Shown: piece by piece, positions 13,418 through 27,328 of the stretch
How positions within the stretch are numbered: position 1 is the first letter of the stretch
Layout of the letters: every line of letters starts with the position of its first letter
Source of the DNA: a virus
IMG/VR virus record: IMGVR_UViG_3300017963_000091
Direction: 5' to 3' (one strand)
Length of the DNA stretch: 47,463 bases
Position numbers and translations under genes: made by a program
The notes under the pieces: generated by a model
Databases searched by the model: none
Told to the model about the DNA's origin: nothing
What the model saw: only the letters and a program-made list of their open reading frames with translations

Positions 13418-14949
13418 CGGTCTGAACCCACCGTATAGCGCACGCCCAGCCAGCGCAGCCAGAACCGCTCGCCGCTGTTGTCGTTCTTGAACCGGAGCCG
13501 CAACTGCCGCCCCACGGTGTCCACATAGAAGCTGTACCGGGCGTAGTCGCTCACAAGCGTCTGGTCGCCCGCCTCCGTCCACGTCGCGCCCAAGTCGGTC
13601 GAGTACGCCACGTCCACGCTCGCGCCCTTGGCCTCGAACATGATCTCAATAATGCGCTTGTAGTGGTTCACATAACGGTCGTCGAGCACCAAGTCCTTGG
13701 ACTCCCAGCGCGCGTCTATCGCCGTCCCGTTGTCGTCGAGCGACACCAGGTCATCCTTGAAAATGTACCCGCCGCTGTTGGCGAAGCAGCGGAAGTTGCG
13801 GCCCTCGAACCCGCCCAAGGCGTCTATCGGCTCGTGGTCCATCTCGTCAATCGTTTTGTCCGACGGCAGTTCGTCAATCGTGCCGCGTGAGCCGAGTTCC
13901 AACGCGCTCGCCGCCGTCAGGTTCTCTATCGTGTCAATCGTCCACCTGTCCTGCTGGTAGTCGTAGACATACTGCCGGTTGATTTTCCCGCCCGACTCCC
14001 CGTAAGGAACGTACAGATAGTACAAATGTTCGTCCTCGTTCAGCATGGCGAAGCACTTGGGGAAATTCGTGCGCGACACGTTCTTGAACAGGTCGTCGCG
14101 GATGCGCCCGCCCACGCCCGTCAGCGCCGTGCCGTTGAACAGGTACACGTCGTCCTGCCCCATGAAGATGTGGTCGAAGCCGAGGTCAATCACCGTGCGC
14201 GGCGCGAGCGTGCCCTTGTTCGGCACCGCCACGTCAAACCGAAACACCGCCAGCCCGCCGACGTACTGCCCGATGTAAATGCGATTCCCGCAATAGACGG
14301 CGAGCCACGCGCCTATCGGCACGCCGCACTGCGCGCCCGTCGGGTCGCCCTCCAAGTCGAAATACCCGCCGCCCGCCGACGTGTCGTACTCGTCGGTCTT
14401 GCCGAGTTCGCTCCAACGGATACGGTACGGATAGCTTGTCCCGTCCTCGTTCGTGCCGAGCAGCAGCAGCCGGTCGGCAAACGTCACCACGGCGCGGCAC
14501 AGATGGTACGTCGGCGTCTGGTAATCGTCGCCGCCCGCGAGGTCGGAGGCATTACCCGTGCCCGTCCATACCTGAACGTGGTCAACGCCGTTCGTGTAAA
14601 TCCATGTATCGTTCATCGTGCAAGCCGAGTGCCGCCCGCCGACCGTGCCGCTCAACCCCGACTTGACGGACGTGAATGTCGCGCCTGTCCACTTGTAGAG
14701 GTTGGAGAGCGTCGCCATCATCGCCGTCGTGGAACCCGCGAGCCGGTCGAAGTCGTTCAGCAGCACGGGCGTCGAGGCCATAGACGCGCTCATCAGCGTC
14801 GTGTAGCCGCGCCGCTTGAATACCTCACCGCCACGGAACCGCACATTCTGCACGCGGGGCGTCTCGTCCCCGCCAATCATCGTCGGCGGGTCTTCCTGAT
14901 TCAGCCCCGCCGCAGGCGCGGCGATCTGGAAGAACTGTGCGTTCGCCAT
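13414..14949 (-). CDS. tail tubular/nozzle-like structural protein (511 aa)
   Basis: ATG 14949..14947 overlaps the TAA of the tail-fibre gene (TAATG). The N-terminus ...NVRFRGGEVFKRRGY resembles the conserved start of podoviral tail-tubular proteins. Beta-rich repetitive sequence. Confidence 0.45.
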   Translation of the reverse strand: MANAQFFQIAAPAAGLNQEDPPTMIGGDETPRVQNVRFRGGEVFKRRGYTTLMSASMASTPVLLNDFDRLAGSTTAMMATLSNLYKWTGATFTSVKSGLSGTVGGRHSACTMNDTWIYTNGVDHVQVWTGTGNASDLAGGDDYQTPTYHLCRAVVTFADRLLLLGTNEDGTSYPYRIRWSELGKTDEYDTSAGGGYFDLEGDPTGAQCGVPIGAWLAVYCGNRIYIGQYVGGLAVFRFDVAVPNKGTLAPRTVIDLGFDHIFMGQDDVYLFNGTALTGVGGRIRDDLFKNVSRTNFPKCFAMLNEDEHLYYLYVPYGESGGKINRQYVYDYQQDRWTIDTIENLTAASALELGSRGTIDELPSDKTIDEMDHEPIDALGGFEGRNFRCFANSGGYIFKDDLVSLDDNGTAIDARWESKDLVLDDRYVNHYKRIIEIMFEAKGASVDVAYSTDLGATWTEAGDQTLVSDYARYSFYVDTVGRQLRLRFKNDNSGERFWLRWLGVRYTVGSDR

Positions 14950-15974
14950 TACCACGTTTCCGCTATGTAGGTGTAAGTAACCCCGCTGCCGTTGACGTAG
15001 GCGTGATTGCCGACGGTAAAGCCCGCCGCGTCGAGCGATATAATGAACGTCGTCAGCCAGTTGCCCGCCGCGTCCTTCGCGTAGAGGCCGTCTTGGTTAG
15101 TCTTGACTACGGGCAGGTGTCCCTGATATTGGGCGTACACGGTGACTTTCTTCGGCTGCCAACTCAGGCCGGTAATCGCGTGCGAGGCCGTGGCGTCGCC
15201 CGTGTAGGTGCCCGTCGCCACCTTGGCGAATACGCCAATGACTTGCTCGTACCGCACCGCGTCGCCGTTCTCGGTCGCTGCAGCCAACCCCGTGATTTTG
15301 CTGCTGCCCATCGCAAGGCTCCCGGCCAGCGTCAGCGTCCCGTCCACCGTGCCGCCGCCCTTCGGCAGATACGCCGGATGCCCGTCAAGGTACACCGTGT
15401 AGCTCTGGCCCGATGCCGTCGTGCCGTCGTACACGCGGTCGAGCGTGATCTGCGTGTTGCTGTCCACGCTGGAAATGACGTAGTATTCGCTGTCCGGGCC
15501 GAGCAGGATGTCATTCGCCGCGATGTTCCCGCTCCATGCCGTGCTGTTGCCTGCGACCGTCGCGCTGGCGTTCGTTACGTCTATTGTGCCCGTCGTGTAG
15601 GTCGTGACGGCGGCGGAGTGGTTCGGCGTGCCCACGGTCGTCCACGCCTCGTCCGTGTAGTTGTATTTCTTGAGCAGGCCGGTGTCGGTCTCGTAGTACA
15701 ACGCGCCGTCCTGCATACCCGCCGCCGCCGTGGACGGCTTGTTCGCGGCCAGCCCGTAGTTGCTGCGACCGGATTCCTTCCGGTGCCGCCAGAGGTTTTC
15801 TTTCCCCGTTTCGTCCGCGTGCGCGTAGTGCTCGACGTTCGCGCGCTCGCGCACGCCCTTGCGGGTGCTCTCAATCAGGTCGTCTATGTCGTCCTGATAC
15901 TGACTGCCCTGATCCGATTCGTCCCACGCATTGTCCGCACTAGTCGCTGCCGAGTCCGAGTTGCTTAGAGTCAT
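14949..15974 (-). CDS. tail fibre protein (341 aa)
   Basis: LPKGGGTVDGTLTLAGSLAMGSSKITGLAAATENGDAVRYEQV matches the widespread fibre motif (L-x-GGT-x-x-G-x-L ... I-T-x-L-A-x-x-x-x-x-x-D-A-V). Acidic N-terminus. Confidence 0.7.
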   Translation of the reverse strand: MTLSNSDSAATSADNAWDESDQGSQYQDDIDDLIESTRKGVRERANVEHYAHADETGKENLWRHRKESGRSNYGLAANKPSTAAAGMQDGALYYETDTGLLKKYNYTDEAWTTVGTPNHSAAVTTYTTGTIDVTNASATVAGNSTAWSGNIAANDILLGPDSEYYVISSVDSNTQITLDRVYDGTTASGQSYTVYLDGHPAYLPKGGGTVDGTLTLAGSLAMGSSKITGLAAATENGDAVRYEQVIGVFAKVATGTYTGDATASHAITGLSWQPKKVTVYAQYQGHLPVVKTNQDGLYAKDAAGNWLTTFIISLDAAGFTVGNHAYVNGSGVTYTYIAETW

Positions 15975-16881
15975 GTTGCTCGCCCCATACTGCCATGATG
16001 TTGTCGTCTATCTGCGCCATACGCCCCCATGCGTATGGTTGGGTCTCTTTGCCGAGCCGTGCGCCGCACCGATGACACGCCTTCGCCTGCCATGAGCCGA
16101 CAAGGTAATCCGACGTGCCGTTGTCGTGCCGCTTCGCTTCCAAGAACACCACCTGATACCAGTCCCCGTTGATGCGAACGTAACCCGAATTGTCCGTGCC
16201 GACGCAGCAGTTCGACGCCACCACGTCGGGCCGCTTGACTTTCACGGGCTTCGGCGCGGGCACGGGCGCGTCGCCCTTGGCGCACCCGTTGAACAGGAAG
16301 GCATAGTCCGCCGCCTTGCCCCAGTGTTCAATCTCTTGGAGATATTGACCGTCTTTCGGTTCGCGCATTCCCGTCAGGTTGCTGCCGTGGCGAATGTCTA
16401 CAATGGGCACAGAAGAAAAGACTTGGTTCGTTGAGTCCGGTTCGGCCCATGCTGGCCCGCCCGCACTCTGTTCCGTCTCCTGCAACTTCTTTTCAATCGC
16501 CGCCCACACCGACCCCTTATCACCGCACAGGCCACTCAACAGCGCGGTATGGCGCGGGAAAAACCCGTGTGCGTTTAGAACCATGACATTCAGGTTGTAA
16601 TAAATCTTGGCACCCCAGTCCGTTTGGAAATGTTCGGCTGGGTACAGCACGTCATCCTCGGCCAGATAAATGTCGTCTGATTGCGCCTTGCGCAACCCGT
16701 CTATGATTTTCCGATAGATGTCCTCGTGCGCCTTCTTGTACTTGCGCGGGCCAACCATCTCGACAACCTCGCCGCCCGTGGCGCGCACCGCTGAATACAA
16801 CACGCTCAGGCAGTATTCCCGCAACACGCCGCTTGCACGCTCGTCAGAGTAGTACACGACGCTGAATTTCGGTGTGCTCAT
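15940..16881 (-). CDS. GT-A-fold glycosyltransferase-like protein (313 aa)
   Basis: GGGAGGAAGAA precedes ATG 16881..16879, which overlaps the TGA of the methyltransferase gene. KFSVVYYSDE... and DDIYLAEDDVLYP (DxD-like). The ORF-track extension to 17136 lies inside the upstream gene. Confidence 0.5.
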   Translation of the reverse strand: MSTPKFSVVYYSDERASGVLREYCLSVLYSAVRATGGEVVEMVGPRKYKKAHEDIYRKIIDGLRKAQSDDIYLAEDDVLYPAEHFQTDWGAKIYYNLNVMVLNAHGFFPRHTALLSGLCGDKGSVWAAIEKKLQETEQSAGGPAWAEPDSTNQVFSSVPIVDIRHGSNLTGMREPKDGQYLQEIEHWGKAADYAFLFNGCAKGDAPVPAPKPVKVKRPDVVASNCCVGTDNSGYVRINGDWYQVVFLEAKRHDNGTSDYLVGSWQAKACHRCGARLGKETQPYAWGRMAQIDDNIMAVWGEQHDSKQLGLGSD

Positions 16882-17378
16882 TTCTTCCTCCCGACGCCCC
16901 AGCAGTCCACGCCGCAGCGCATTGGGGCTTCGTATGCCTCGACCACTTCCATGCCGCCCTGCTCCAGCAGGGCGCGCATCCCGTCCTCCAAGATACGAAA
17001 GCAGTCCAGCGGGTAGCGGTGGGTGTGGAATCGCCTCGGTGCTACGACAAACGCATACCCGCCAGACCGCAGTATCCGGCCAATCTCGCAGACAATCCGC
17101 CACGGATTCCGCGAGTGTTCCAACACCTGTCCGCACAGCACCAAGTCCGCGCTCACGTCGGGCAGGGGAATCTCCATGTCATTCTTCATCACCACGTCCA
17201 CGTTCTTGCCAGTCGTCACGTCTACGCCGATGTAGCTCCACTTGTCGTCCATCAGGTCGCGGTACGTCCCGTTCACGTCCTGTGACCCCACGTCCACAAC
17301 GGCGTACTTCTCGCCGCGCCAGTCGGTAAGGTACTTGTCCATCAGTTTCGCTATGCCGTCGTGGCTTTCCCTGTGCAT
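16878..17378 (-). CDS. class I SAM-dependent methyltransferase (166 aa)
   Basis: VVDVGSQ (motif I), DLVLCGQVLEHS and ILRSGGYAFV give a Methyltransf_11-type layout. Confidence 0.85.
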   Translation of the reverse strand: MHRESHDGIAKLMDKYLTDWRGEKYAVVDVGSQDVNGTYRDLMDDKWSYIGVDVTTGKNVDVVMKNDMEIPLPDVSADLVLCGQVLEHSRNPWRIVCEIGRILRSGGYAFVVAPRRFHTHRYPLDCFRILEDGMRALLEQGGMEVVEAYEAPMRCGVDCWGVGRKK

Positions 17379-17575
17379 CAGTTCCCCTCCTTTTTGTTAT
17401 TGGTTTCGGTTGTGATTGCTCTCCGTCGCGCGTGGAGCATTTGGCGCGCCACCGTAAACGCCCAGTCGGCAGTGGTATCCGTCCAATGTAGGCCGTTGAA
17501 CGAGGACGCCCGGCCCTGCACATACCTCATGGCCGCATCGCTCATAAACTGCTTTTCGTCATCGGTCAACATCAC
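17378..17575 (-). CDS. hypothetical small protein (65 aa)
   Basis: ORF bridging the GT2 and methyltransferase genes, overlapping both. No motif recognised. Confidence 0.5.
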   Translation of the reverse strand: MMLTDDEKQFMSDAAMRYVQGRASSFNGLHWTDTTADWAFTVARQMLHARRRAITTETNNKKEGN

Positions 17576-18548
17576 CTGTCTCCCTCCGCCAGTTCCCGCA
17601 CAATCTTAGAAACGCTTCGTCGGACAGCAGGCAGCGTTCCCGTATCCGCCTGCCGTACTCCCGTAGTTCGGCAGATTGCGACACCGCGTCAAGTACCGCA
17701 CGCGACACACCCGCGTCGGCCATGTGGCCCGCGAACATCTCATACGCCGGATTCTCGAAGAGTATCCGGTACATGGACGCCATTTGCAGGTCTTGCTGCC
17801 CTCGCGTGTTCGTGTACGGCGCGTTGCCGGGGTCGCGGAACTCGTGCGTCACGTTCACCGTGCGGGTCAGCGTGATCGGCACGCAGCACTTCGCCGCGAG
17901 GATGGACATGGCGCACTCGGAATGGCCCGTCGTGCCCGACAGCGCCAGCCAGCCGCCCATGCGTTCAAGCACGTCTTTTGGTATCGCGTAGCACGCGCCC
18001 ATCATGCCCGTCGTTCGCGCCACGTCGCCCTTGTCCGCGCCGCGCCAGTAGACTTGCAGCAGCCCCTTGTCGTTCACTTCCAGCCGCGCACCGAAATGGT
18101 TATTGCAGCCGCCGTAGGCGAAGCCCCGTGTCCGCTTGGCAACGGCGCATATCCGCGTGATGTCGTTCGTCTTGAACCGCATGTGTGCGTCGGTGAAAAA
18201 CAGCACACGTCCATGTGCGGCCAATGCCCCGATGTGTCTGCTGCCCGCGCAGCCCTGACGTGTAATGTTGTAGACCGCCGCGCCGTCCACGCGCCGTTCG
18301 CTCATGTCGTCCACGACGATGATCTCCGCGCCGGGACACGTCTCGCGGATGTTCGCCACGGTATTCGGCAAGTCCGGCTCGTTACACGCCGCGATGATGA
18401 CGGAAATGTCGCTGGCGAGCATCTTGGACTTACACTGGCCGCATCGCTTCGATTCAGCCACGCGCTCCATTGCCAGCAAGCGTTCTCTAAGCGTTGTGCC
18501 CAACAACTGCCCCGTTCTACTCGACCGCCACTCGCTCCATGCGTCCAC
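17559..18548 (-). CDS. family-2-type (GT-A) glycosyltransferase with a D-x-H motif (329 aa)
   Basis: ISVIIAACNEPD ... EIIVVDDMSE ... FFTDAHMRF. This is the classical GT2 N-terminal signature, with DAH at the metal-binding position. Confidence 0.8.
   Translation of the reverse strand: MDAWSEWRSSRTGQLLGTTLRERLLAMERVAESKRCGQCKSKMLASDISVIIAACNEPDLPNTVANIRETCPGAEIIVVDDMSERRVDGAAVYNITRQGCAGSRHIGALAAHGRVLFFTDAHMRFKTNDITRICAVAKRTRGFAYGGCNNHFGARLEVNDKGLLQVYWRGADKGDVARTTGMMGACYAIPKDVLERMGGWLALSGTTGHSECAMSILAAKCCVPITLTRTVNVTHEFRDPGNAPYTNTRGQQDLQMASMYRILFENPAYEMFAGHMADAGVSRAVLDAVSQSAELREYGRRIRERCLLSDEAFLRLCGNWRRETGDVDR
17667..17679 (-). repeat. conserved 13-mer GCAATCTGCCGAA, exact copy 4 of 4
   Basis: Plus-strand ttcggcagattgc. 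It lies inside the 3' part of the GT2 gene (encoding QSAE), about 90 nt upstream of the start of 17378..17575. Confidence 0.9.
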
Positions 18549-19257
18549 GATGCACGACCAGAAAATGATTCACCTTCTCGCCCTCGCGCCGGTCATGGCG
18601 CAACAGGCCATTCCCGCCCCCACCCGTAATCGCTTGCGCATACCGCCCCATTTCCATTGTGAGGAAGTAATGCCAATACCCGCTGAATACGATGTCCACG
18701 CCGCCTACGGAAACGACCGCCTCGATGTCCGGTTGCCCCGGAAGCGTTCGGTCAGACGCCGGAATCTCCGGCAACGGCTTGTGCGTGAACAGGTATCGCC
18801 TGTCGCACGGCACGGCTAGTTCGGCCCGCAACCAGTCGAGCATCGCGGCCCGCTCCGCGCCCGCGAGTTCTGTATTCAGCACAACGTATCGCGTGCCACC
18901 GTCGGCCAGCACGTCGTAGTCGCGCCCGTATCGCCCGCGCCAGAATTCCAACGCGCCCGGTTCGTCAACATCGTGATTCCCGCATACCACATGAACCGGC
19001 ATGTCCAGCCCGGACACAAGCGTATCGAATCGCGCCCAGCCCTCACGCCAACGCGGCCCATGCACCACGTCGCCCACGACGAACAACCTGTCCGCGCCCG
19101 TCGCGTTGATTGCGTCCACCCACGACTCGTCGAAGTCCGACACGGGCAAGTGCAAATCGCCCACGACGGCGAATGATGGCGTCGTGCCGTGCGCCGCCCA
19201 TAGAATCGGGACGGCCAGCACAGCCGCGCAAATAATAGCTAACGCCAGTCGCTTCAT
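18517..19257 (-). CDS. secreted metallophosphoesterase (246 aa)
   Basis: Signal-peptide-like N-terminus MKRLALAIICAAVLAVPILWAAHG, then the GDLHLP, VVGDVVHG and VCGNHD motifs. Confidence 0.8.
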   Translation of the reverse strand: MKRLALAIICAAVLAVPILWAAHGTTPSFAVVGDLHLPVSDFDESWVDAINATGADRLFVVGDVVHGPRWREGWARFDTLVSGLDMPVHVVCGNHDVDEPGALEFWRGRYGRDYDVLADGGTRYVVLNTELAGAERAAMLDWLRAELAVPCDRRYLFTHKPLPEIPASDRTLPGQPDIEAVVSVGGVDIVFSGYWHYFLTMEMGRYAQAITGGGGNGLLRHDRREGEKVNHFLVVHRGRMERVAVE

Positions 19258-19499
19258 CTCAATCTCCCGAATGGGAGTCTATCTCACAATTCGGCCCATG
19301 TCAACTTCGGCCACGCCCAAACGTTCCGCACTGATGACACGCCTTGGATGGCCATGAGATCGTGAAGGTCTTGGACTGATTATCGCGCAGTTCTTTCGCC
19401 TTCTCCGCAAACGCCAGCAGTTCTGCCTTCGTCAGTTGAAACCACGCCACCTGGCACCACGTTCCGTTTACGCGAAGATGCCTCGTACCCTCTTGGTAA

Positions 19500-19679
19500 T
19501 CACAACCTCGACACCTCCACGTCGGGCCTGTTCACCTTCTCGGCAGCGCGCCGCGCAATATCCGTCTCCATGTCTTTGAGCATTCGTTCCCGATGCTCCT
19601 GACAGGGCGCGCAGTCGCCCTTGTTCGCTTTGTTCTTCGCCGCCGCCCGCCGGTAATGCTCCAACCCTTCCCCGGCCAT
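19500..19679 (-). CDS. hypothetical small protein (59 aa)
   Basis: ATG 19679..19677 lies 2 nt after the upstream stop. Basic, helical, contains CAPC. Confidence 0.45.
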   Translation of the reverse strand: MAGEGLEHYRRAAAKNKANKGDCAPCQEHRERMLKDMETDIARRAAEKVNRPDVEVSRL

Positions 19680-19681
19680 GA

Positions 19682-20095
19682 CTATTTCTCCAATCCCGCA
19701 AAGAAGATTTCCTCGCACTTCGCCGCCACGTCGGCGGTAAGGTGCCCGTCACCAACCAATCGCGTCAACTCGTCGCGGATGCCGTCCTGTGTGTCGGGAA
19801 TTGTCCCGTTGAACGCCTTCAGCAGTTCAACAGACGCCGACGCCGCCCGTTCAATGGCCGCTTGGCGTTGTTCCTCCGCACTGGCCGGAACGTCTACGGG
19901 GACAACTCCTTTCCATTTCCCAAGCGGACAATTCGATTCTGGCCCATTCAGGAATTCGTACTCGATAGCCACGCGAAACGCTTTTCCGTTCGCCTCGCAG
20001 TGTGGCCACTTGTCTTTGTATCCCGGCCTAGCTACGCACTCGAAGCACGCTTCACAACGCCGGTGTCGTCCCCAGCCCAACGGTGTCAGTCCCAT
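19682..20095 (-). CDS. hypothetical Cys-rich protein (137 aa)
   Basis: AAGGGTGAG precedes the ATG. The N-terminus has CEACFEC ... PHCE ... NCP. Confidence 0.6.
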   Translation of the reverse strand: MGLTPLGWGRHRRCEACFECVARPGYKDKWPHCEANGKAFRVAIEYEFLNGPESNCPLGKWKGVVPVDVPASAEEQRQAAIERAASASVELLKAFNGTIPDTQDGIRDELTRLVGDGHLTADVAAKCEEIFFAGLEK

Positions 20096-20105
20096 GTCTC
20101 ACCCT

Positions 20106-20789
20106 TTATGAATAAACCGTCTGTGTTGCGGGAAACGTTTCACTACCGCCGCCGCCCAGACACGCGCTGTCGAATTTCGTGTAGAGGCCGTCCGGACAAT
20201 CGCCGTCGCCCGTAGGCGTGCGTTTGTAGTCGGCCTGACCGTGCGGGTCCGGCCCGCCGTTCGTGTAGAAGTAGAGCGGAATCACCCAATAGCCGTCCGC
20301 GCATTTCAGGCGGTCCGTCAGTCCCGCGCGATAGTCGCCGCTTGCCACGGTTGACCCCGTCCACTCGCACTTCGGCCCCGGCGGGAAACCGCCCGTGTAC
20401 TGCGTCAGCGTCATAATGGACCCGGCACCGAACGGCCCGACGCCACACGCGCCCTGATCGCTCACGTCTAAGTAGTAGGTGGATTCGCATCCGGTGCAAT
20501 TGTCGGTCGGGCATGTGCCCGGCGCTGGCGTGGTCGTTGTCGTCGTTGTGGTAGTAGTCGTAGTTGTGGTCGTTGTCGTCGTAGTGGTCGTCGTAGTTGT
20601 TGTGGTCGTCGTAGTCGTTGTGGTTGTCGTGGTCGTGGTAGTCGTTGTCGTTGTCGTAGTGGTCGTGGTGGTAGTCGTCGTTGTGGTAGTGGTTGTCGTG
20701 GTGGTTGTAGTCGTCGTCGTCGTGGTGGTTGTAGTCGTCGTGGTAGTGGTCGTGGTTGTGGTCGTTGCCGTCTTGAGGCAGGGGAACAT
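20106..20789 (-). CDS. poly-threonine (79xThr) protein with a Cys-rich C-terminal domain (227 aa)
   Basis: MFPCLKTA, then 79 consecutive Thr, then a 140-aa domain with 8 Cys (CPTDNCTGC ... KCEW ... KCADGYW ... DCPDG ... ACLGG). The ATG overlaps the TAA of the upstream fibre-like gene (TAATG). Confidence 0.75.
   Translation of the reverse strand: MFPCLKTATTTTTTTTTTTTTTTTTTTTTTTTTTTTTTTTTTTTTTTTTTTTTTTTTTTTTTTTTTTTTTTTTTTTTTTTTTTTTTTPAPGTCPTDNCTGCESTYYLDVSDQGACGVGPFGAGSIMTLTQYTGGFPPGPKCEWTGSTVASGDYRAGLTDRLKCADGYWVIPLYFYTNGGPDPHGQADYKRTPTGDGDCPDGLYTKFDSACLGGGGSETFPATQTVYS
20529..20765 (-). repeat. 237-nt (ACN)79 tract encoding poly-Thr
   Basis: The plus strand is an unbroken run of NGT triplets (ggt/cgt/tgt/agt in irregular order). 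All four Thr codons are used, so this is not a perfect microsatellite. Confidence 0.95.
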
Positions 20790-21370
20790 TAGTCTTGGCT
20801 CACCGTTCGCTTGAGGACTGCCACTACGGTCAACTCTTCCGCCCCGGTGCCCGCGTCATCTACCACGCACTTCAAGAGGTCGTTCGCGCTCAACGCGGTG
20901 GTGCCCAGCACTGCCGGTGTCGCCGCACTCACGCTGCTGCGCTCGGTCGCGTCTATGGTCAACTTCGTGCTGAACACGGTCGCCCACGTCGTCCCGTTAT
21001 CGCCCGATTTCTGCACGTCTATGGTGATCGCGCCGCTGGTCGAGGCCGTCGCCACGGTCGCATGTATCCGGTCAATCGTTGCCGCCGGGTACACCAGCGG
21101 CCAGTATTGCAGGGTGCGGGCCGTAACGGTGCCGAGCGTCCATGCCGCGCTTTCGTAAACGGTATGGGTGTGGGTTGACGCGGAACTCCCCACGTCGTCA
21201 TTGTCTACGTCGTGCGGGTTGTCGGTGTCCTCGACGTGCTGTTCCAGCGCGTCAAGCCGCGTGTCTATGTGCTCGTGCGTCGTGTTCAGGCTGCTCGTCG
21301 TCAGGCGTGCGGCGGCGGCAAGCGCGTACAGCGTGTCGTAATAGTTCGCCACTATCCCGTCTCCGTCCAT
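20789..21370 (-). CDS. tail-fibre-like protein (193 aa from ATG 21370; GTG 21400 also possible)
   Basis: DTDNPHDV (an NPH motif common in fibre proteins) and a Thr/Ala-rich beta-type C-terminal domain. No clear SD for either start. Confidence 0.55.
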   Translation of the reverse strand: MDGDGIVANYYDTLYALAAAARLTTSSLNTTHEHIDTRLDALEQHVEDTDNPHDVDNDDVGSSASTHTHTVYESAAWTLGTVTARTLQYWPLVYPAATIDRIHATVATASTSGAITIDVQKSGDNGTTWATVFSTKLTIDATERSSVSAATPAVLGTTALSANDLLKCVVDDAGTGAEELTVVAVLKRTVSQD

Positions 21371-21546
21371 GTCGTGTCGGGGTCGCTTCGCGCCGTCCAC
21401 GTCGTGCCCGGCTCGTCGTATTTCCGCTTCGTCATGGTCGCGTCGTCATAGTCGGTCACGCCGGATACCGTCGCGGCGTCATCGTCCACGATCTCGAAGT
21501 CCAACTCCGTCCCGGCGCGCGCCGTATAGGTCAAATCAGTTGTCAT
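21352..21546 (-). CDS. small acidic Thr/Asp-rich protein (64 aa)
   Basis: ATG 21546..21544 overlaps the TGA of the adaptor-like gene (TGATG). MTTDLTYTARAGTELDFEIVDDDAATVSGVTDYDD... Confidence 0.45.
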   Translation of the reverse strand: MTTDLTYTARAGTELDFEIVDDDAATVSGVTDYDDATMTKRKYDEPGTTWTARSDPDTTWTETG

Positions 21547-22202
21547 CAACCGTACTCCGGTTTCAGCCAGTAACTACCCGGATGCCGGGTGCTCTCCCCG
21601 AACTGCGGTCGCCAGCCGGGCCGCGACCTGTCCTGAACAATCGCCTCCTTCAAGTCGCGTCGCCACTCGCTCGTCCACCACGCCGCCCGGTCGAATTCGC
21701 CAAGACTCGCGTACAGCCGCGCCGTCGCGTGCTCAATCAGCACATGATCTATCTGGTCAATGTCCGGCGTGTCGTCGTCGTTCGACAAGTCGTCCGGCCA
21801 CTTGACATAGTTGATATACACGGTGTAATCATCGTCCGGCTTCGCGGGCAGTTCCCAGTAATTCCCGTCGCGTGCGAAGCACCACGGCTTCTCCGTGTCC
21901 GCGTCGTCCGGGTTCGGCTCGCGCTCCATCAGCCAGCGTTTGTCGCGCTCCTCAAGCCACTCGCTCTCCGTCCCGCTTATCAGCCGGATGCCGATGAGCG
22001 TTTTCATGTCGGACGGGAACGAATAGCGAAAATCATCCTCGTCCAGCGTGGACTCGAATTCCCGGTAGAGATCGAGCCAGTCGTGGCGCGTGGCGACAAT
22101 GCGCAGCGCGTCGTTCAGCAGCGAGAGAATCAGGGTGTCCTTGTCGTTGCGCCCCGTGTTGTCGGTCACGCGGTCAACGAGTTCAGCTTTCGTCAGAGCC
22201 AT
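21546..22202 (-). CDS. head-tail adaptor / tail-tubular-A-like protein (218 aa)
   Basis: The N-terminal pattern MALTKAELVDRVTDNTGRNDKDTLILSLLNDALRIVA... is typical of adaptor-type proteins. Size is similar to T7 gp11, and it lies in the structural operon. Confidence 0.45.
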   Translation of the reverse strand: MALTKAELVDRVTDNTGRNDKDTLILSLLNDALRIVATRHDWLDLYREFESTLDEDDFRYSFPSDMKTLIGIRLISGTESEWLEERDKRWLMEREPNPDDADTEKPWCFARDGNYWELPAKPDDDYTVYINYVKWPDDLSNDDDTPDIDQIDHVLIEHATARLYASLGEFDRAAWWTSEWRRDLKEAIVQDRSRPGWRPQFGESTRHPGSYWLKPEYG

Positions 22203-22211
22203 GTTGTGCCC

Positions 22212-23234
22212 CTAGAGAAATTCGACATGCGGCGGCGGGTTGTGCTTCATGTTCCACAGGATACGGTTGAACGGGTCGCACCGGCACAGCGGCACACAAT
22301 CGCGGAAGTCTATGCTGTCAATCACGTCCCGCCGACGGTCGCCGTACCAGATGTTCTCAAGCGAGTTCTCGTGGATGTTGCCGAGCGCGTACTTCTCCTT
22401 GCCCCGCATGTGGCAGCAGAGCCATACCGTACCGTCCGCGCCGACGACCGTGGCGAACGCCTGCCCGTAGCACTTGCCGTAGGGCCGACCCGTGTTCCCC
22501 ATGTTGCGGAACTTGTTCTCGCTCCACACCACGGCGTAGTCCTTGCGCGTGTACCCCAACGACCGGCAATACGCCGACTCAATCGCGGGCAGCAGCTTTG
22601 GCTTGTCGAGCGTCTCGTGGAACGGCCTGAATTGCAGATAGTCCACGCCGAGCATGGCGCAGAGCGACGCGCATTTCTCCATCTCGTTTATCGTGTGCGC
22701 GCCGACAAGGAAGCCGACGCCGATAGTCGTTTCCGCGCCGCGCTCGCGCTTCGCCTCGGCCAAGACCCGGATGTTCGTTATCACCCGCTCAAAGTTCTTC
22801 GTCCCGTGTGTCTTGGCATACAACCCCGCCGTCGCGGCGTCGAGCGATACCCGTATCCACGTCGCCCGGAACAGGTCGCCGTATAGTTCCGGGTTCAGCA
22901 GCACCCCGTTCGTAATCAGGCCGACACCCAACCCCGCGTCCACGGCGTACCGCATCGTCGCGGGCGCGGACGTGTGGCATAGCGGCTCCCCGCCGCCCGT
23001 GAATATCAACCCCCTCACCCCCAGTTCCACTGCCTCGTCTATCACGCGCCGCGCCGCGTCCGTTTCGAGCGACGCGGTGGACTTGTACCGCCCGCCCGCG
23101 CAACACGGGCAGTTGTCCGTGCAGCGGTTCGTCATGTCCAGTTCCATCGTGATCGGCGTACCGTCGCCCGCCCGCTTCCATTCCGCCACCCTGTCAGGAT
23201 GGAAGTGCAGCTTGCTTCCGCTGATTGGATTCAT
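22212..23234 (-). CDS. radical SAM enzyme with a Cys-rich SPASM/twitch-like C-terminal region (340 aa)
   Basis: CTDNCPCC (CX3CX2C), GLIFTGGGEPL, and C-terminal Cys clusters CYGQAF...LCCHMRG...CVPLCRC. ATG 23234..23232 is preceded by GGGGAG. Confidence 0.85.
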   Translation of the reverse strand: MNPISGSKLHFHPDRVAEWKRAGDGTPITMELDMTNRCTDNCPCCAGGRYKSTASLETDAARRVIDEAVELGVRGLIFTGGGEPLCHTSAPATMRYAVDAGLGVGLITNGVLLNPELYGDLFRATWIRVSLDAATAGLYAKTHGTKNFERVITNIRVLAEAKRERGAETTIGVGFLVGAHTINEMEKCASLCAMLGVDYLQFRPFHETLDKPKLLPAIESAYCRSLGYTRKDYAVVWSENKFRNMGNTGRPYGKCYGQAFATVVGADGTVWLCCHMRGKEKYALGNIHENSLENIWYGDRRRDVIDSIDFRDCVPLCRCDPFNRILWNMKHNPPPHVEFL

Positions 23235-23403
23235 TTCTCCCCATGTCGTGTACCACGGTAACCGCGCAAAGAATCGCTGCCGCCGTGGCAATGCCCGCGA
23301 AAAGCCCCAAAGCCAGATTGCCCGTCAACCGAAACGCGGTGTAGTTATGACTCGCAACTATCGTCGCTACGACCGTCAGCCCCGTCAGCACCTTGCGCGC
23401 CAT
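23194..23403 (-). CDS. small two-TM membrane protein (69 aa), doubtful
   Basis: MARKVLTGLTVVATIVA...LALGLFAGIATAAAILCAVTVV. It overlaps both neighbours, by 59 and 41 nt. Confidence 0.35.
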   Translation of the reverse strand: MARKVLTGLTVVATIVASHNYTAFRLTGNLALGLFAGIATAAAILCAVTVVHDMGRNESNQRKQAALPS

Positions 23404-24052
23404 CTGTCCTGATGAACCCCATATGCGCCCCCGTTCTCTCCCAAACATCCCGCTCGAAGTATGCCAATACCCCGCTGTTCACCAACCTGTCCGCCGACTC
23501 CTGATAGCCCTTGTGCTTCCAGTCATGTACGATGACGTAGCCGCCCACCGGCACGTCGGGCGCAAACGTCTCCAAGTCCGGCGGGCCGATGTCAAGGTAC
23601 AACATGACGCGCTCCCCGCATCCGTCCGGGTCGGCGGCACGCGGTATCTGACTGACTACCCACCGCCGCCGGTCGCCGTCGTAAACGTCTATCCCGCCAT
23701 ACGCATCGCCCCACAATGGCAAGGCTTTCCGAATGTCATGACCAACATTGCCCGCGTCGCAGGCGAACACGACCGGCTGGCAACTCGGCGGCGAACAGTA
23801 ACGCGCCCGCTTCACGGGCACGCGATTGAGTTGCGCATACATTGCCAAGTACACCGCCTGCACGCCGTCCCCGCAGCCGAGTTCCAGAATGTACGTCGGC
23901 CTGACTGTGCGCAGAAACGCCTCGATCTGCCGCAAGTCGTCCCAGCCCTTCACCACCTGCCGCCCGAACAGGCTCTTGAACTCATATGCGGGCAATGCCA
24001 TCGCAGCCGCGAAGTCGTCAGGGAATGGATAGGTCTTCGTGCCGACGGTCAT
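23345..24052 (-). CDS. class I methyltransferase-fold protein (235 aa)
   Basis: YILELGCGDGVQAVYLA (motif I) and GGYVIVHDW. The ATG overlaps the TGA of the upstream methyltransferase gene (ATGA). Confidence 0.6.
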   Translation of the reverse strand: MTVGTKTYPFPDDFAAAMALPAYEFKSLFGRQVVKGWDDLRQIEAFLRTVRPTYILELGCGDGVQAVYLAMYAQLNRVPVKRARYCSPPSCQPVVFACDAGNVGHDIRKALPLWGDAYGGIDVYDGDRRRWVVSQIPRAADPDGCGERVMLYLDIGPPDLETFAPDVPVGGYVIVHDWKHKGYQESADRLVNSGVLAYFERDVWERTGAHMGFIRTDGAQGADGADGRSDDSCES

Positions 24053-24621
24053 TTTTCCCCCTCCATCGGTCTTCGATACGCGCCGACGACGCCGATTGAC
24101 CCAATGTGCCGGAACTCCGACTTCGGCACGTTGTCGTCAATGGCCTTCTGTACCGCCGGGCAGTTCACGTCATGGAGCGCGAGTATCCCGCCCGGTGGGA
24201 TATGCTTCGACCACGCCACAATGTCAGCCGACGCCGCTTCGTAAGTATGTGAGGCGTCTATGAACACCATCGCCACGCGCCCGTAAGCCCATGACCTGCC
24301 CGCGTCCGCGCTGTCGCCCGTCAGGATTCGCACACAGTCGGTCAGGTCAGCCAGAGCCAATGCCTTCGTCGCCATCTCCTCGCTGCCGCTCTTTTGTGTA
24401 CTCGGCACTGTGCCCCAGATGTCATAGCCAAAGAGCGTCGCGCCCGTGTCCCGGCACGCCGCGCCCAACGCGCACGCGCTGCGCCCGCGATAGACGCCGA
24501 GTTCCACGACATGCTTGCAGCCCGTGTCAAGCACCGCGCTCGTCGCCAGCGCGTAAAGCAGCGCGCCGTCGGCGGGCGTCATCAACCCCTCAGTGCGCTT
24601 GAATCGCTCGTACCAGTGCAT
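24049..24621 (-). CDS. class I SAM-dependent methyltransferase, Methyltransf_24/TylF-like (190 aa)
   Basis: VVELGVYRGRSACAL, FIDASHTYEAASADI and GGILALHD. ATG 24621..24619 overlaps the TGA of the GT2 gene (TGATG). Confidence 0.8.
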   Translation of the reverse strand: MHWYERFKRTEGLMTPADGALLYALATSAVLDTGCKHVVELGVYRGRSACALGAACRDTGATLFGYDIWGTVPSTQKSGSEEMATKALALADLTDCVRILTGDSADAGRSWAYGRVAMVFIDASHTYEAASADIVAWSKHIPPGGILALHDVNCPAVQKAIDDNVPKSEFRHIGSIGVVGAYRRPMEGEK

Positions 24622-26066
24622 CACACATATCCCTCTGCGTTGTAGTAATGCTTCGTTCTGACGCCCCAGTGTGCCATGAGGCGGTTGCCTCTGTCCCGAA
24701 CGTGTCGCCACAGCCCGAAGTCCTGTCCAAGCCAGTTCCCGATCTCGCCAACGGGGTACTTGAAGTTCTGCAACACTTCCTTGCGTATCAGCACAAACCC
24801 GACGCCTGACGCGCCTATCGGGGTGCATCCGTCGCTCGGCGGGCGCGGCAGGTCGCCGGGGAATCGCTCTATCGGCTTCAATCCGACCGACCCGTCTTTC
24901 CGATGCTGCCATTCCATCGCCAGAAGCCGATTGTTGTCCACGATAGGCCGCGAGTAGTACACGCCCGTCACGGCGTCCACGTTCGGAGCCATGCCCTCGA
25001 ACAGCCGCCGCGCCGCGTTCGGCTCATACGGCTCGTTGTCGTCCTCGATGCTCAGGATGAACGGCGTCGAAAAATGCGGCGTCGCTCGCGACCACATCTC
25101 GGCCATGCGCTCCGGCATGACCATGCACCTGTTGTGCAGGTTCGTGTACGAGACCCGCGTGTCGTCTTTCTGGTAAATCGTGTTCCGCGCCTTGCAGTTC
25201 GCAAGATACTCCCGCAGCATCTTTCCGCGTTCAGCGTCGTTCGTGTTGTCGTAGAAGAACAGGGTCGTCCTGTCCCAGTCCAGTCCAAGGTTCTCCAGCA
25301 TGTCGAAGAACCGCCGCCCGGTAATCGGCCTGCCCGGCCCGAACGGGGTGAACACGGTGATCGGTCTACGCCGCAGCACTTCCTGATACCACGGCATCCG
25401 GTTCTGGAAACTCGCCGTCAGGCTCCCCGCGTGCGTCCGATGCTCGTAGTTGATATTGGCATACGCCGCCCACCACCCGTGTTCCAATATCCGCAGCCAC
25501 AACTCCCAGTCCTGAAACACGGGCAGATTGCCCCAGCCGCCGACACTCTCAATCGCGCGCCGCCGCACCATGCTCTGGCCCGCGATGTAGTTCTCGCGGT
25601 ACACGCTCGGCCTGTTCTTGCCGCAGCCCTGACTCTCGTACAGGCCGAAACTCGTGTGCATGGGATAGACAAGGCCGATGCGCCGTTCGGTGAATCGGTC
25701 ATGCAACGCCTTGAGATAGCCTTTCGGCAGCACGTCGTCGGCGTCCATGAACACAATGAACTTGGATTTCGTCATGCACAGGCCGCGCTGGCGCAGGGCG
25801 CAAATGTTCCGTTCCACAGGCCCGACCACGGCCACCTTCACCCCCGACGCACGCGCCACCGCCACGCTGTCGTCCTCGCTGGCATTGTCCATGTAGACAA
25901 TCTCGCGTGCGCCGGGGGTCTGCCGCTGCACGCTCTCTATGGCGTCTTTCAGGTATTGCCCGTAGTTCCGGCCCGATATGATGACCGCAACGGGCAGCCG
26001 CTCCTTGCTCTGCGCCAAGTCCGGTATCATAAACTCGCGGAATCGCTTGATGATGTCCAGGGTCAT
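24621..26066 (-). CDS. two-domain glycosyltransferase, N-terminal GT2 (481 aa)
   Basis: VAVIISGRNYGQYLKDAIESVQRQT...EIVYMDNASEDDS...FVFMDADDVLP gives the GT2 signature and DxD. The second half has another GT-A-like block (...FFYDNTNDAE...FILSIEDDNEP). Confidence 0.85.
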   Translation of the reverse strand: MTLDIIKRFREFMIPDLAQSKERLPVAVIISGRNYGQYLKDAIESVQRQTPGAREIVYMDNASEDDSVAVARASGVKVAVVGPVERNICALRQRGLCMTKSKFIVFMDADDVLPKGYLKALHDRFTERRIGLVYPMHTSFGLYESQGCGKNRPSVYRENYIAGQSMVRRRAIESVGGWGNLPVFQDWELWLRILEHGWWAAYANINYEHRTHAGSLTASFQNRMPWYQEVLRRRPITVFTPFGPGRPITGRRFFDMLENLGLDWDRTTLFFYDNTNDAERGKMLREYLANCKARNTIYQKDDTRVSYTNLHNRCMVMPERMAEMWSRATPHFSTPFILSIEDDNEPYEPNAARRLFEGMAPNVDAVTGVYYSRPIVDNNRLLAMEWQHRKDGSVGLKPIERFPGDLPRPPSDGCTPIGASGVGFVLIRKEVLQNFKYPVGEIGNWLGQDFGLWRHVRDRGNRLMAHWGVRTKHYYNAEGYV

Positions 26067-27328
26067 TTGAATGCCTTCGGGAACTCCGCCTTCAAAATGG
26101 TCATAATGGCGTCATACTCCACGCCCTCGATCTTCGCGTCCTTCGCGTGCCGGTTCATCTGCGCGTAGTCGCTCGGCACCAGGTCTTTCCCCAGCGTCTC
26201 ATGCAGCTTGCACCCCGGATACGGCGTCAGGAACGCGGGGCTGTAGTAGTCCACGTCGCAGTCCTTGACGAGCCGCACGGTCTGCATCGTCTCGCTCGGC
26301 GTCTCGCCGGGGATGCCGTGTATGATGTTTCCGACTATCCGGCAGCCCAGCCGCTTGAGCGTCCGGCACGCCTCGTAGTTCTGCTCGACGGTCGTGCCCT
26401 TCTCCAAGTAGTCCAAGTGCCGCTGGCACCCGCTTTCCAGCCCGACGTTCACCGTGTCGAGGCCGATACCGCGCAATGCCTCGAACATGGCGGGCCGCTT
26501 CACGATGATGTCGGCGCGACACGCGACGTTGAACGGGATACCGCCGCACACCTTCGGATACTCGCGTATGAATTCCTCGACCCATTTCCGCCTGAGCGTG
26601 AACAGGTCGTCTATGAACTCGATGTAGGCGGGGTGGTACTGTCGCGTCAGGTGCTTGAGTTCCATCATCACATGCGCGACGCTGCGTATCCGCACTTTCG
26701 GCCCGAACACCGTGTCGCTCACGGGATAGCAGAACGCGCATTTGTGCGGGCACCCGCGCCCGACCATGACGGTCACGAACGGATAGGCGCTGTGCCATTG
26801 CCCGCCGTGGTAGAGTTCCCCGCCGCGATAGTCTATGAGTTCCCGGTCTATGGGAAGAAGCGCGTCGAGGTCGGGCGGTTCCCCGGCCACCACGCGCTCG
26901 TACCCGACAAAATAGTCCCTGAGCATGTCGCACAGCGTCCACTCCCCTTCGCCTGTCAGGATGTAGTCAATCTGCGCCTTCTTCTCCGCGTCTTCCGGCT
27001 TGATGCTGACATGCACGCCGCCCATCACGGTCGTCACATGCCGCGCCTTCTCTTTCAGCCGCTTCAGATAGTCGCACGCGACGGGGAAGTCCACGGTCAT
27101 CGCGCCGACGCCGACGAATTCCGGGTCGCGCAACAGCGTGTCGTTCACCGCGTCTTCAATACACTTATGCCGCCGCAAGTCCACGATGGTAACGTGGTGC
27201 CCGTTGCGGTTCGCTTCGGTCGCCACGGATAGAAGCCCGTGCGGGAGGGAGTTGTGCCTTCTTCCCTCCCGCGCGTAGCAGTTCCAACCGTGCATCGTTA
27301 CGTTCGGCACTACCAACACGCCCTTCAT
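26063..27328 (-). CDS. B12-binding-domain radical SAM enzyme (421 aa)
   Basis: A Rossmann-like cobalamin-binding N-domain (HHVTIVDL...FVGVGAMT...VMGGVHVS...ILTGEGE) is followed by VGRGCPHKCAFC (CX3CX2C). This is the class-B radical SAM layout. Confidence 0.9.
   Translation of the reverse strand: MKGVLVVPNVTMHGWNCYAREGRRHNSLPHGLLSVATEANRNGHHVTIVDLRRHKCIEDAVNDTLLRDPEFVGVGAMTVDFPVACDYLKRLKEKARHVTTVMGGVHVSIKPEDAEKKAQIDYILTGEGEWTLCDMLRDYFVGYERVVAGEPPDLDALLPIDRELIDYRGGELYHGGQWHSAYPFVTVMVGRGCPHKCAFCYPVSDTVFGPKVRIRSVAHVMMELKHLTRQYHPAYIEFIDDLFTLRRKWVEEFIREYPKVCGGIPFNVACRADIIVKRPAMFEALRGIGLDTVNVGLESGCQRHLDYLEKGTTVEQNYEACRTLKRLGCRIVGNIIHGIPGETPSETMQTVRLVKDCDVDYYSPAFLTPYPGCKLHETLGKDLVPSDYAQMNRHAKDAKIEGVEYDAIMTILKAEFPKAFK

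Follow-up and report, generated by a model that had tools for sequence, protein, structure and literature searches.

We analysed a viral DNA stretch of 47,463 nucleotides (IMG/VR record IMGVR_UViG_3300017963_000091; this whole stretch is hereafter the window) in which two islands of glycosyltransferase, methyltransferase and radical S-adenosylmethionine (radical SAM) enzyme genes lie within the structural operon of a short-tailed phage. Our results suggest that these islands, A (22212-27328) and B (15940-19257), encode a cytoplasmic machinery with which the phage would glycosylate its own virion proteins, adding methylated glycans tailored by radical SAM chemistry. We favour this reading with moderate confidence, and all steps of the model derive from homology and synteny. 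It appears to be the most economical reading of several features taken together: a fixed slot in the head-to-tail gene block, translational coupling of the genes, a phage-specific core transferase, soluble enzymes, the likeness of one glycosyltransferase (B2) to transferases directed at serine and threonine, Ser/Thr-rich proteins encoded beside each island, and tailoring enzymes with sugar-related relatives (CmcI/rhamnosyl-O-methyltransferase, Methyltransf_24, polysaccharide deacetylase, polysaccharide pyruvyl transferase and BlsE/DesII-like enzymes).

The first 36 bases of the window recur exactly at its end (positions 1-36 equal 47428-47463); the assembly is therefore closed, and the window is a complete circular phage genome of 47,427 bp. 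Its G+C content is about 0.61, and its minus strand carries nearly all genes, including every window gene for which coordinates are given below. The structural genes of E. coli phage SU10 are ordered as portal (gp6), capsid (gp9), Ig-like protein (gp10), adaptor (gp11), long fibre (gp12), short fibre (gp16) and nozzle (gp17), and the layout of the window agrees with this order (PMC9509320). The genome is that of an uncultured SU10-like short-tailed phage (podovirus) from groundwater. After the gene for the major capsid protein (29649-28699, identified by profile search), the minus strand encodes p254, p113, island A, the head-tail adaptor, p65, p203, a protein with a long threonine tract (the poly-Thr protein), two small Cys-rich open reading frames (ORFs), island B, the tail fibre and a structural protein matching the PHROG profile phrog_3287 (14949-13414). 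The adaptor (21546..22202) is of the SU10 type (PF24175, SU10_adaptor, 59.9 bits) and forms the downstream border of island A; the tail fibre (14949..15974; PHROG tail protein and tail fibre matches, E-value 1e-13) forms that of island B. Flanked by these structural genes, both islands lie inside the virion operon, as the initial annotation had stated. Its description of the gene order as T7-like was correct about placement in the structural module, but the order itself is SU10-like and not strictly T7-like.

In the window, island A encodes a B12-binding radical SAM enzyme (A1), a tandem glycosyltransferase (A2), a Methyltransf_24 methyltransferase (A3), a CmcI-like methyltransferase (A4) and a SPASM radical SAM enzyme (A6). 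Pfam matches were judged by bit score against family cut-offs and NCBIfam matches against equivalog cut-offs. Nearly all of the enzyme calls made in the initial annotation were borne out by these profile searches: A1, A2, A3 and A6, together with B1, B2 and B4 of island B, score above the Pfam cut-offs. A1 (26063..27328) joins a cobalamin-binding N-terminal domain (PF02310, 59.2 bits, cut-off 32.1) to a radical SAM core (PF04055, 78.4 bits), the two features of the class B superfamily, and its CX3CX2C motif reads CPHKCAFC (residue 193). It stays under every NCBIfam equivalog cut-off, including those of BchE (123.8 bits, cut-off 481) and HpnJ (119.3 bits, cut-off 578), and its best solved homologues are QCMT (9ccb), the MCR glutamine C-methyltransferase, and AprD4. 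A1 belongs to a phage clade with at least 49% identity among its members; the nearest cellular relatives, at 36-39%, are uncharacterised Chloroflexi proteins. Such relatives (L015 7357-9401 and L016 4311-6355; about 466 amino acids (aa), 38% identity) are encoded beside a helix-turn-helix (HTH) regulator and a large alpha-amylase-family gene, a neighbourhood that rests on one example examined. The only relative of A1 among GenBank phages, gp36 of Streptomyces phage SF3, was rejected as an analogue because its identity is 24% and its context, thymidylate kinase and NUDIX genes, differs.

The second radical SAM enzyme, A6 (22212..23234), matches PF04055 (61.3 bits) and the SPASM domain PF13186 (41.8 bits, cut-off 21.5), the latter over profile positions 1-66 of 67, and its CX3CX2C motif reads CTDNCPCC (residue 38). 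Among proteins of solved structure, its best homologues are BlsE and DesII, both of which modify sugars. Most of its NCBIfam matches, none of which reaches an equivalog cut-off, are to maturases of peptides or cofactors (tungsten-cofactor oxidoreductase maturase, PqqE, mycofactocin and sactipeptide maturases). A3 (24049..24621) is a class I methyltransferase (Methyltransf_24, 80.4 bits) that also matches a PHROG labelled 'DNA methyltransferase'. An alternative reading of A3 as a 287-aa ORF was replaced by one of 190 aa, whose start is set by a TGATG junction and by the public gene call. The methyltransferase calls hold for A3 and B4; for A4 (23345..24052) the CmcI match (19.9 bits) falls under the Pfam cut-off, and the assignment as CmcI/rhamnosyl-O-methyltransferase-like is backed by 40% identity to a protein of relative L004 with a recorded RMNT_CmcI match. 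A4 is 40% identical to its homologue in relative L002 too. A small membrane ORF noted initially (23448-23194, 84 aa) is indeed hydrophobic, yet it overlaps both A4 and A6 and is absent from the public gene calls. Hydrophobic segments are absent from every island enzyme except B1.

The core of island A is A2 (24621..26066; Glycos_transf_2, PF00535, 59.5 bits). On its AlphaFold2 (AF2) model (predicted local distance difference test (pLDDT) score 86.8, predicted template modelling score (pTM) 0.86), A2 is a putative double glycosyltransferase of two tandem GT-A domains, each with a conserved acidic metal motif. The best Foldseek matches of the model (E-values 2e-18 to 1e-13) are the heparosan synthase PmHS2 (E-value 2e-18), the chondroitin polymerase K4CP, human LH3, mimivirus R699 and ColGalT1, and the model aligns with the two-domain enzymes PmHS2 and K4CP across 500-555 columns. 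The N-domain motif D108-A-D-D111 (DADD) is invariant in 17 aligned sequences, as are E341 and D343 ('SIEDD') of the C-domain. We found 15 full-length homologues of A2 with at least 48% identity; the next matches drop to 26-28%, and further ones are confined to the N-terminal domain. The six full-length homologues whose contigs were examined all come from the same phage clade. Across 185,579 species (one genome each) no full-length or prophage copy of A2 was detected and only relatives of the N-domain were present, with at most 33% identity; none was found by tblastn in 50,697 GenBank phages. The initial annotation had named a location of the closest homologues in host O-antigen or capsule loci as the sign of an envelope-modifying system, and none of our results places the genes in such loci. 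The best cellular matches of the A2 N-domain are from Chloroflexia, which, together with the Chloroflexi relatives of A1, gives a weak hint of a possible host or gene donor. Other similarities of A2 include prophage-encoded TarP among its PDB sequence matches and a weak match of its N-domain to a GtrB-like O-antigen conversion PHROG (E-value 1.6e-4).

We then compared island A across relatives of the phage, contigs from groundwater and other metagenomes to which homologues of A1, A2 and the capsid protein had led. Between these relatives and the window, the identity of the capsid proteins is 43-71%. Scanning IMG/VR with patterns from one protein at a time (capsid protein, A1 or B2) gave no match. 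Wherever a contig spans this part of the genome, the island occupies the same slot, after the capsid gene and p254-like and p113-like genes and, where the contig reaches that far, before the SU10-type adaptor gene. Its content varies. L004, L005 and L006 encode the B12-binding radical SAM enzyme, the tandem glycosyltransferase and a CmcI-type methyltransferase, and L002 encodes the tandem glycosyltransferase, a 63-aa ORF, a CmcI-like protein, a polysaccharide deacetylase and the B12-binding radical SAM enzyme. In L018 and L021 the order is a Methyltransf_24 protein, the B12-binding radical SAM enzyme, the tandem glycosyltransferase, another Methyltransf_24 protein, the SPASM radical SAM enzyme (a homologue of A6) and two unknown proteins. 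L020 carries the tandem glycosyltransferase, an A6 homologue and a Methyltransf_24 protein without the B12-binding enzyme, while L012 and L017 show the B12-binding enzyme and the tandem glycosyltransferase before the contig ends. The tandem transferase of about 485 aa is the only invariant gene of the island, and the tailoring enzymes are combinatorial. Island A had initially been described as an insertion; this comparison of neighbourhoods shows it to be a lineage-wide fixture and not recent cargo. The two extra genes of L021 (13112-14688; L018 7472-9036), which separate the SPASM gene from the adaptor gene and encode 252 and 273 aa, have no significant family match; the search gave only a faint match to class-I tRNA synthetases (E-value 0.044).

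Similar gene combinations occur in less related viruses. A siphovirus-type contig, L014, with HK97-gp10-like, tail-completion and head-completion genes, carries directly upstream of the head-completion genes an island of a GT2-like gene (glycosyltransferase family 2), a Methyltransf_11 gene, a B12-binding radical SAM gene (49% identical), a GT2 gene and a GT4 gene; the first of these ORFs is truncated and is GT2-like by tblastn. An unrelated 68-kb IMG/VR contig, L044, encodes at 9410-15703 a B5-like protein, a Methyltransf_24 protein, a polysaccharide pyruvyl transferase, a GT2, a B12-binding radical SAM enzyme and another GT2. The B12-binding radical SAM gene is therefore flanked by glycosyltransferase genes in three viral islands (window, L014 and L044), and in L002 it adjoins the polysaccharide deacetylase gene. 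Together, these contigs and the relatives show a recurrent placement of this gene beside those of carbohydrate enzymes in islands of viruses.

Island B begins with B1 (18517..19257), a metallophosphoesterase (PF00149, 47.9 bits) with a signal-peptide-like N-terminus whose Kyte-Doolittle hydrophobicity peaks at residues 1-26. The genome encodes one more metallophosphoesterase (3800-4621; PF00149, 25.7 bits), at a great distance from island B, and thus has two in total. B2 (about 17559..18506, with possible starts at 18548, 18506 and 18470) is a GT2 enzyme (Glycos_transf_2, 43.2 bits). At E-values of 1 or less, all ten of its PDB sequence matches are polypeptide N-acetylgalactosamine (GalNAc) transferases (T4, T2, T12 and T1), and this match, although weak (the best E-value of 2.2e-4 is marginal), favours protein O-glycosylation. 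The alignment with these enzymes includes the strand 'SVIIAACNEP' with NE(P/A) and the VVDD motif 'EIIVVDDMS', and it places D106-A-H108 of B2 on the DSH/DCH motif ('FFTDAHMRF' vs 'TFLDSHCEC'). A downstream His also aligns ('VTHEFR' vs 'VGHVFR'), this second stretch not being significant alone. B2 is about 315 aa long, GT2 is its sole Pfam domain, and no ricin-type lectin domain was detected. No homologue of B2 was found in GenBank phages (tblastn), IMG/VR or the relatives, and no other contig reaches the B2 region. B3 (17378..17572) is a 64-aa ORF without family match that is translationally coupled to B4 (16878..17378), a class I methyltransferase (Methyltransf_11, 41.9 bits; PHROG SAM-dependent methyltransferase, E-value 1e-10).

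The last gene of the island, B5 (15940..16881), encodes a 313-aa protein with an ExD motif ('AEDDVLYP') and a Cys-rich C-terminal part. It had been described as GT-A-like, which our analyses do not confirm: B5 has no match in Pfam, NCBIfam, PHROGs or PDB sequences, profile searches of the PDB returned only noise (nitrogenase, lectin), hhalign against A2 gave a probability of 0.5%, and the AF2 single-sequence model has a pLDDT of 32. Pfam searches on 20 members of the B5 family produced two matches with E-values of about 0.04. The pair E75-x-D77 is conserved in these 20 members ('AEDDVLY..HF'), and the family occurs at 35 IMG/VR loci (L022-L056), often as two or three adjacent paralogues and usually beside Methyltransf_24 genes. 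By these alignments, the N-terminal domain of B5 defines an unannotated viral family.

The overlaps that the initial annotation had described as linking the genes within the islands are present at five junctions. We confirmed ATGA overlaps at A1/A2, A3/A4 and B4/B5 and TGATG overlaps at A2/A3 and B3/B4, but a 110-nt gap precedes A6 and a 242-nt gap precedes B1. Folding of the RNA in these two gaps is no better than that of shuffled sequences (z +0.34 and +0.65). The gap before B1 contains TTGACA-17-TAGACT (19304-19276, minus strand; 10 of 12 matches), the best sigma-70-like match in the region, where the number of promoter-like matches is no greater than chance. The same gap also holds an uncalled ORF of about 50 codons with a GTG start. 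Coupling within each island is thus supported, but the strict late co-expression proposed initially is not established, because island B may be separately transcribed from its own promoter.

Ser/Thr-rich proteins that could serve as acceptors are encoded beside each island: Ser and Thr make up 24% of p113, 28% of p65, 23% of p203 and 46% of the poly-Thr protein. The latter (20106..20789) consists of an 8-residue N-terminus, 79 consecutive Thr and a Cys-rich C-terminal domain of about 140 aa. The Thr codons are mixed (ACG 30, ACC 21, ACA 15 and ACT 13). The other strand of the tract reads as poly-Val with equally synonymous codons, and the public gene caller chose this frame. The Thr frame is plausible because it is co-oriented with its neighbours, is coupled to p203 (the p203 stop overlaps the start codon of the poly-Thr gene as TAATG) and runs into a conserved domain; we conclude that the poly-Thr ORF is real. 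A frameshift fusion with p203 was also considered; in the upstream direction the poly-Thr frame stays open for no more than 22 codons. In L020, a p65-like ORF, a full-length B5 homologue (31-35% identical, motif conserved), a p203 homologue and a poly-Thr ORF follow the adaptor; this poly-Thr ORF, of at least 205 aa, is cut by the contig end after at least 23 Thr encoded by mixed ACN codons. Genes for a poly-Thr protein and a B5-type protein therefore adjoin in a second phage, whose capsid protein is only 46% identical.

Homologues of the poly-Thr C-domain (window 20109-20528) carry low-complexity spacers of varied composition before the domain. The spacer of P0181, whose C-domain is 86% identical, is an acidic T/G/D/E/S repeat, that of P0184 consists of SR/SGS repeats over about 150 residues, that of P0185 is T/V/R-rich and that of P0188 is made of TG/SETE repeats; P0182 and P0189 have essentially no spacer. 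No match to the C-domain was found in GenBank phages, and the domain varies too much in its alignment to yield a usable scan pattern. Because the spacers of the family vary in this way (SR-, TG/DE- and TVR-rich), poly-Thr appears to be one spacer variant and not the defining feature of the C-domain family. The poly-Thr protein nevertheless is a candidate mucin-like acceptor.

Further candidates lie next to the capsid gene and in the fibre region. The conserved protein p254 (27839..28603) follows the major capsid protein at the same position in all relatives, in the slot of SU10 gp10, and has no Pfam or PHROG match; it is a candidate minor capsid or decoration protein and a candidate acceptor for island A. 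The small protein p113 (27386..27727) is encoded immediately upstream of island A in every relative. In its alignment T36, T41 and T44 are invariant, and the motif Y-(N/H)-(A/S)-T includes an N-x-T sequon in five of the seven relatives; the motif and the invariant Thr are possible modification sites, which would make p113 a further possible acceptor. The fibre-like protein p203 (20789..21400) has weak PHROG matches and homologues in L002 and L020. In L004, the gene after the adaptor (12276-13424) encodes a PEPDPEPEPEP linker and repeated Cys-rich modules ('GACCMPDGSCSVLTEAACS..GGNYQGDDEVCDPNPCP') and is unrelated to p65 and p203 of the window.

In the model that we favour, B2 would start O-linked glycans on Ser/Thr. 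Its most obvious target would be the 79-Thr tract, encoded two genes upstream of island B, and other Ser/Thr-rich fibre proteins are possible targets. A2 would add or polymerise two sugars, acting on the capsid-surface proteins encoded just upstream (p254, p113 or the capsid protein), on the glycan started by B2, or on both. The SAM-dependent methyltransferases (Methyltransf_24, CmcI-like and Methyltransf_11) would methylate the sugars, A1 might C-methylate or rearrange a sugar or possibly modify a protein residue, and A6 might perform a sugar transformation of the BlsE/DesII type. Each island would serve the proteins of adjoining genes, A the capsid-surface proteins and B the fibre-associated poly-Thr protein, an assignment suggested by adjacency alone. 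Host sugar nucleotides would be used, because genes for sugar-nucleotide synthesis are absent, and each phage would display a different glycan, because the tailoring set differs between relatives. This combinatorial set suggests a diversification of the surface glycan. A bolder form of the model, which we put forward tentatively and hold to be doubtful, is that of a viral mucin: a fibre-associated tract of about 80 Thr would be densely O-glycosylated by a phage enzyme related to animal polypeptide GalNAc transferases, extended by A2 and tailored by the radical SAM enzymes and methyltransferases, with C- and O-methylated sugars that would be new among viruses and with swapped tailoring genes diversifying the virion surface.

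Several observations weigh against virion glycosylation. The glycan and its acceptor are both deduced from genes. The similarity of B2 to GalNAc transferases is marginal (best E-value 2.2e-4), the lectin domain is absent, and B2 is without homologue in the relatives, GenBank phages and IMG/VR. The spacers of the C-domain family differ greatly, SR-rich ones included, so that poly-Thr could be a mere flexible spacer, and the 8 residues before the Thr tract leave attachment to the virion unexplained. The closest solved homologue of A1 acts on a protein glutamine, the NCBIfam matches of A6 are mostly peptide or cofactor maturases, and A3 matches the 'DNA methyltransferase' PHROG. B1 looks exported and is preceded by a promoter-like site, which would fit a moron. 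Finally, soluble GT2 enzymes act on lipid-linked envelope precursors too.

These points bear on four other explanations. The islands might modify the host envelope, altering surface polysaccharide, teichoic acid or lipopolysaccharide during infection (masking receptors, which would spare progeny from loss on debris, or excluding other phages) and leaving virion proteins untouched. Envelope-glycan metabolism typically involves GT2 enzymes, polysaccharide deacetylase and pyruvyl transferase; A2 has its weak GtrB-like match, TarP among its sequence matches and capsule polymerases among its best fold matches; and B1 combines a signal peptide with the sigma-70-like match before the island. We nevertheless consider this explanation unlikely. 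Pfam scans of the complete genome, which took in the larger ORFs (about 100 aa and above), revealed no recognisable integrase, lysogeny module or flippase, and neither a transmembrane glycosyltransferase nor a polyprenol-phosphate transferase is present, B1 being the only island enzyme with a hydrophobic segment. Of the features of Gtr-type seroconversion (GtrA flippase, membrane-anchored GtrB and GtrC, and a temperate carrier phage with an integrase), none was detected, which leaves the GtrB-like match of A2. In addition, A2 has no full-length cellular or prophage copy, the translationally coupled genes keep their slot in the head-to-tail block across divergent relatives, and B2 resembles protein O-glycosyltransferases. 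The islands could also encode a small-molecule or lipid glycoside pathway similar to that of hopanoids, where HpnI (GT2), HpnK (deacetylase) and HpnJ (B12-radical SAM ring contraction) cooperate, yielding a modified glycolipid or metabolite. L002 carries exactly this trio of GT2, polysaccharide deacetylase and B12-binding radical SAM genes, HpnJ is the second-best NCBIfam match of A1 (119 bits), A2 weakly matches HpnI and HpnB, and the cellular proteins closest to A1, from Chloroflexi, have no assigned role. However, the HpnJ score is far under the cut-off of 578, the deacetylase occurs in L002 alone among the recovered relatives, no lipid-related genes are present, and both the tandem GT-A architecture and the placement in the structural operon would be left unexplained, which makes such a pathway very improbable in our view.

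Two further explanations retain a phage-borne substrate. The radical SAM enzymes might modify proteins directly, in the manner of ribosomally synthesised and post-translationally modified peptides (RiPPs): A1 would C-methylate side chains as QCMT and PoyC do, A6 would cross-link capsid or fibre proteins, and the glycosyltransferases would be separate or form a secondary layer. This explanation stays in play because the closest solved homologue of A1 is QCMT; RiPP C-methyltransferase families are among the NCBIfam matches of A1, peptide and cofactor maturases are the top matches of A6, and the genes adjoin those of the small structural proteins p113 and p65. Yet all scores are far under the family cut-offs, the best solved homologues of A6 modify sugars, the B12-binding enzyme is encoded among glycosyltransferase genes in three viral islands and beside a deacetylase gene in a fourth, and each of the two radical SAM enzymes is dispensed with in some relatives, the glycosyltransferase in none. 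We judge this explanation unlikely; it may coexist with glycosylation. Alternatively, glycosyltransferases and tailoring enzymes might decorate phage bases against restriction. Phage GT-A and GT-B enzymes, several of which have folds like that of TarP, are known to attach a variety of glycans to 5-hydroxymethylcytosine; the known DNA sugar pathways need a C5-methyltransferase plus a TET/5mYOX enzyme, or a ThyA-like enzyme (bioRxiv 10.1101/2023.12.21.572611). The PHROG match of A3 and the thymidylate kinase and NUDIX genes beside the SF3 relative of A1 (24% identity) would fit such a pathway. In contrast, the scanned ORFs of the complete circular genome include no C5-methyltransferase, TET/5mYOX or ThyA/ThyX-like hydroxymethylase, the islands lie in the virion module apart from the replication genes, and B2 resembles protein O-GalNAc transferases. 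DNA hypermodification is the least probable of the explanations considered. Glycosylation of virion proteins remains our preferred reading.

Profile searches identified the large terminase (34624-32972) and a portal of the P22/SU10 type (33095-31146). All relatives conserve, between their portal and scaffold genes, the ORF of a small zinc-ribbon protein (30896-31192 in the window; Zn_ribbon_8 in the relatives), and in the window a scaffold-like protein is encoded on the same strand between this ORF and the major capsid gene. The large proteins encoded downstream of the phrog_3287 gene are probably internal or ejection proteins. Among them, a 1335-aa protein (7221-11228) has one hydrophobic segment (residues 1037-1055) and weakly matches the virion RNA polymerase profile phrog_2206 over residues 210-465 (E-value 1.7e-6); for it too, a role as ejection or internal protein is probable. 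Products of the early region include Rad52, a DnaC-like loader, DUF5131 (41269-42327; 166.9 bits), DUF1064, and extracytoplasmic function (ECF)-sigma-like and HTH proteins. A 151-aa ORF (43611-44066) weakly matches the start of the Radical_SAM profile (E-value 0.0026) and could be a third, degenerate radical-SAM-like gene. A tandem repeat at 47195-47366 (33-bp unit, 5.2 copies, 89% matches) lies inside the minus-strand ORFs 47452-46745 and 47445-47155 and, if translated, would give 11-residue repeats. L001 is a second assembly of the same phage, 99.97% identical, with an indel near 36737-36820. Megablast returned no match to a close cultured phage; Brucella, Bradyrhizobium and Myxococcus phages and a phage record from a faecal metagenome have capsid proteins that share only 20-24% identity with that of the window.

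Reports of glycosylated phage virions have so far come mainly from actinobacteriophages, in which the modification changes recognition by antibodies. If the proposed model is true, virion glycosylation would be extended to environmental SU10-like podoviruses and radical SAM chemistry would be tied to a virion-surface glycan, for which we know of no report. The phage surface may be under diversifying selection, as the combination of one fixed transferase with interchangeable radical SAM, methyltransferase and deacetylase genes suggests, and the islands would constitute a compact enzyme set for new sugar chemistry. A natural poly-Thr protein paired with a minimal, lectin-less GalNAc-transferase-like enzyme might also be usable for engineering O-glycosylation in bacteria.

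The closest known systems share parts of this arrangement. Capsid and tail-tube proteins are glycosylated in the mycobacteriophages Che8, Corndog and other cluster O phages, and Myrna (Freeman et al. 2023, as cited in PMC11600133), and the cluster O phages are described as having three tandem glycosyltransferase genes downstream of an O-methyltransferase gene (PMC11600133). Phage-encoded glycosyltransferase genes in tandem and an O-methyltransferase gene are thus a shared feature, and in the window the glycosyltransferase genes likewise stand beside virion structural genes. In contrast, the window, where glycosylation is predicted, combines an SU10-like podovirus scaffold with a tandem GT-A core, two radical SAM enzymes and a poly-Thr protein. 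A tblastn search of A1, A2, B2 and B5 against the 50,697 GenBank phages found nothing comparable, and the similarity to actinobacteriophage glycosyltransferases is limited to a generic fold-level match to a Gordonia phage enzyme. Among eukaryotic viruses, chlorovirus PBCV-1 has multi-domain enzymes of the A064R type that carry glycosyltransferase and methyltransferase domains. Its capsid glycosylation is virus-encoded (PMC9614988, PMC5408694). As in our model, cytoplasmic viral multi-domain glycosyltransferases and methyltransferase activity produce methylated capsid glycans without host machinery; PBCV-1 differs in being a eukaryotic giant virus with atypical N-linked glycans and no radical SAM enzyme, and the homology that we observed consists of generic GT-A fold matches to giant-virus glycosyltransferases.

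At the level of single enzymes, the catalytic domain of the GT27 polypeptide GalNAc transferases aligns with B2 over the NE(P/A) strand, VVDD, DxH and the downstream His. These transferases start mucin-type O-glycosylation on Ser/Thr, for which long Thr tracts are classical acceptors. B2 differs in its length of 315 aa without a lectin domain, in an E-value of only 2e-4, in a poorly aligned Gal/GalNAc-T motif and in that it would act in the bacterial cytoplasm, whereas GT27 enzymes act in the Golgi. The bifunctional glycosaminoglycan synthases PmHS2 and K4CP and the collagen glycosyltransferases LH3, ColGalT1 and R699 share with A2 the tandem GT-A architecture, both acidic motifs of A2 being conserved, but identity is 10-14%, overall template modelling (TM) scores are 0.3-0.4 and the domain arrangement is different. 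Class B radical SAM enzymes act on proteins in the case of QCMT and PoyC. Others act on sugars, as do GenK, GenD1 and Fom3 (PMC12931638). A1 resembles both groups in its B12-binding Rossmann domain and radical SAM core and differs in staying under all equivalog cut-offs. Compared with these systems, what would be new within virus-encoded virion glycosylation is the combination of an invariant tandem GT-A transferase, interchangeable radical SAM and methyltransferase tailoring, a minimal GalNAc-transferase-like enzyme and a conserved poly-Thr protein.

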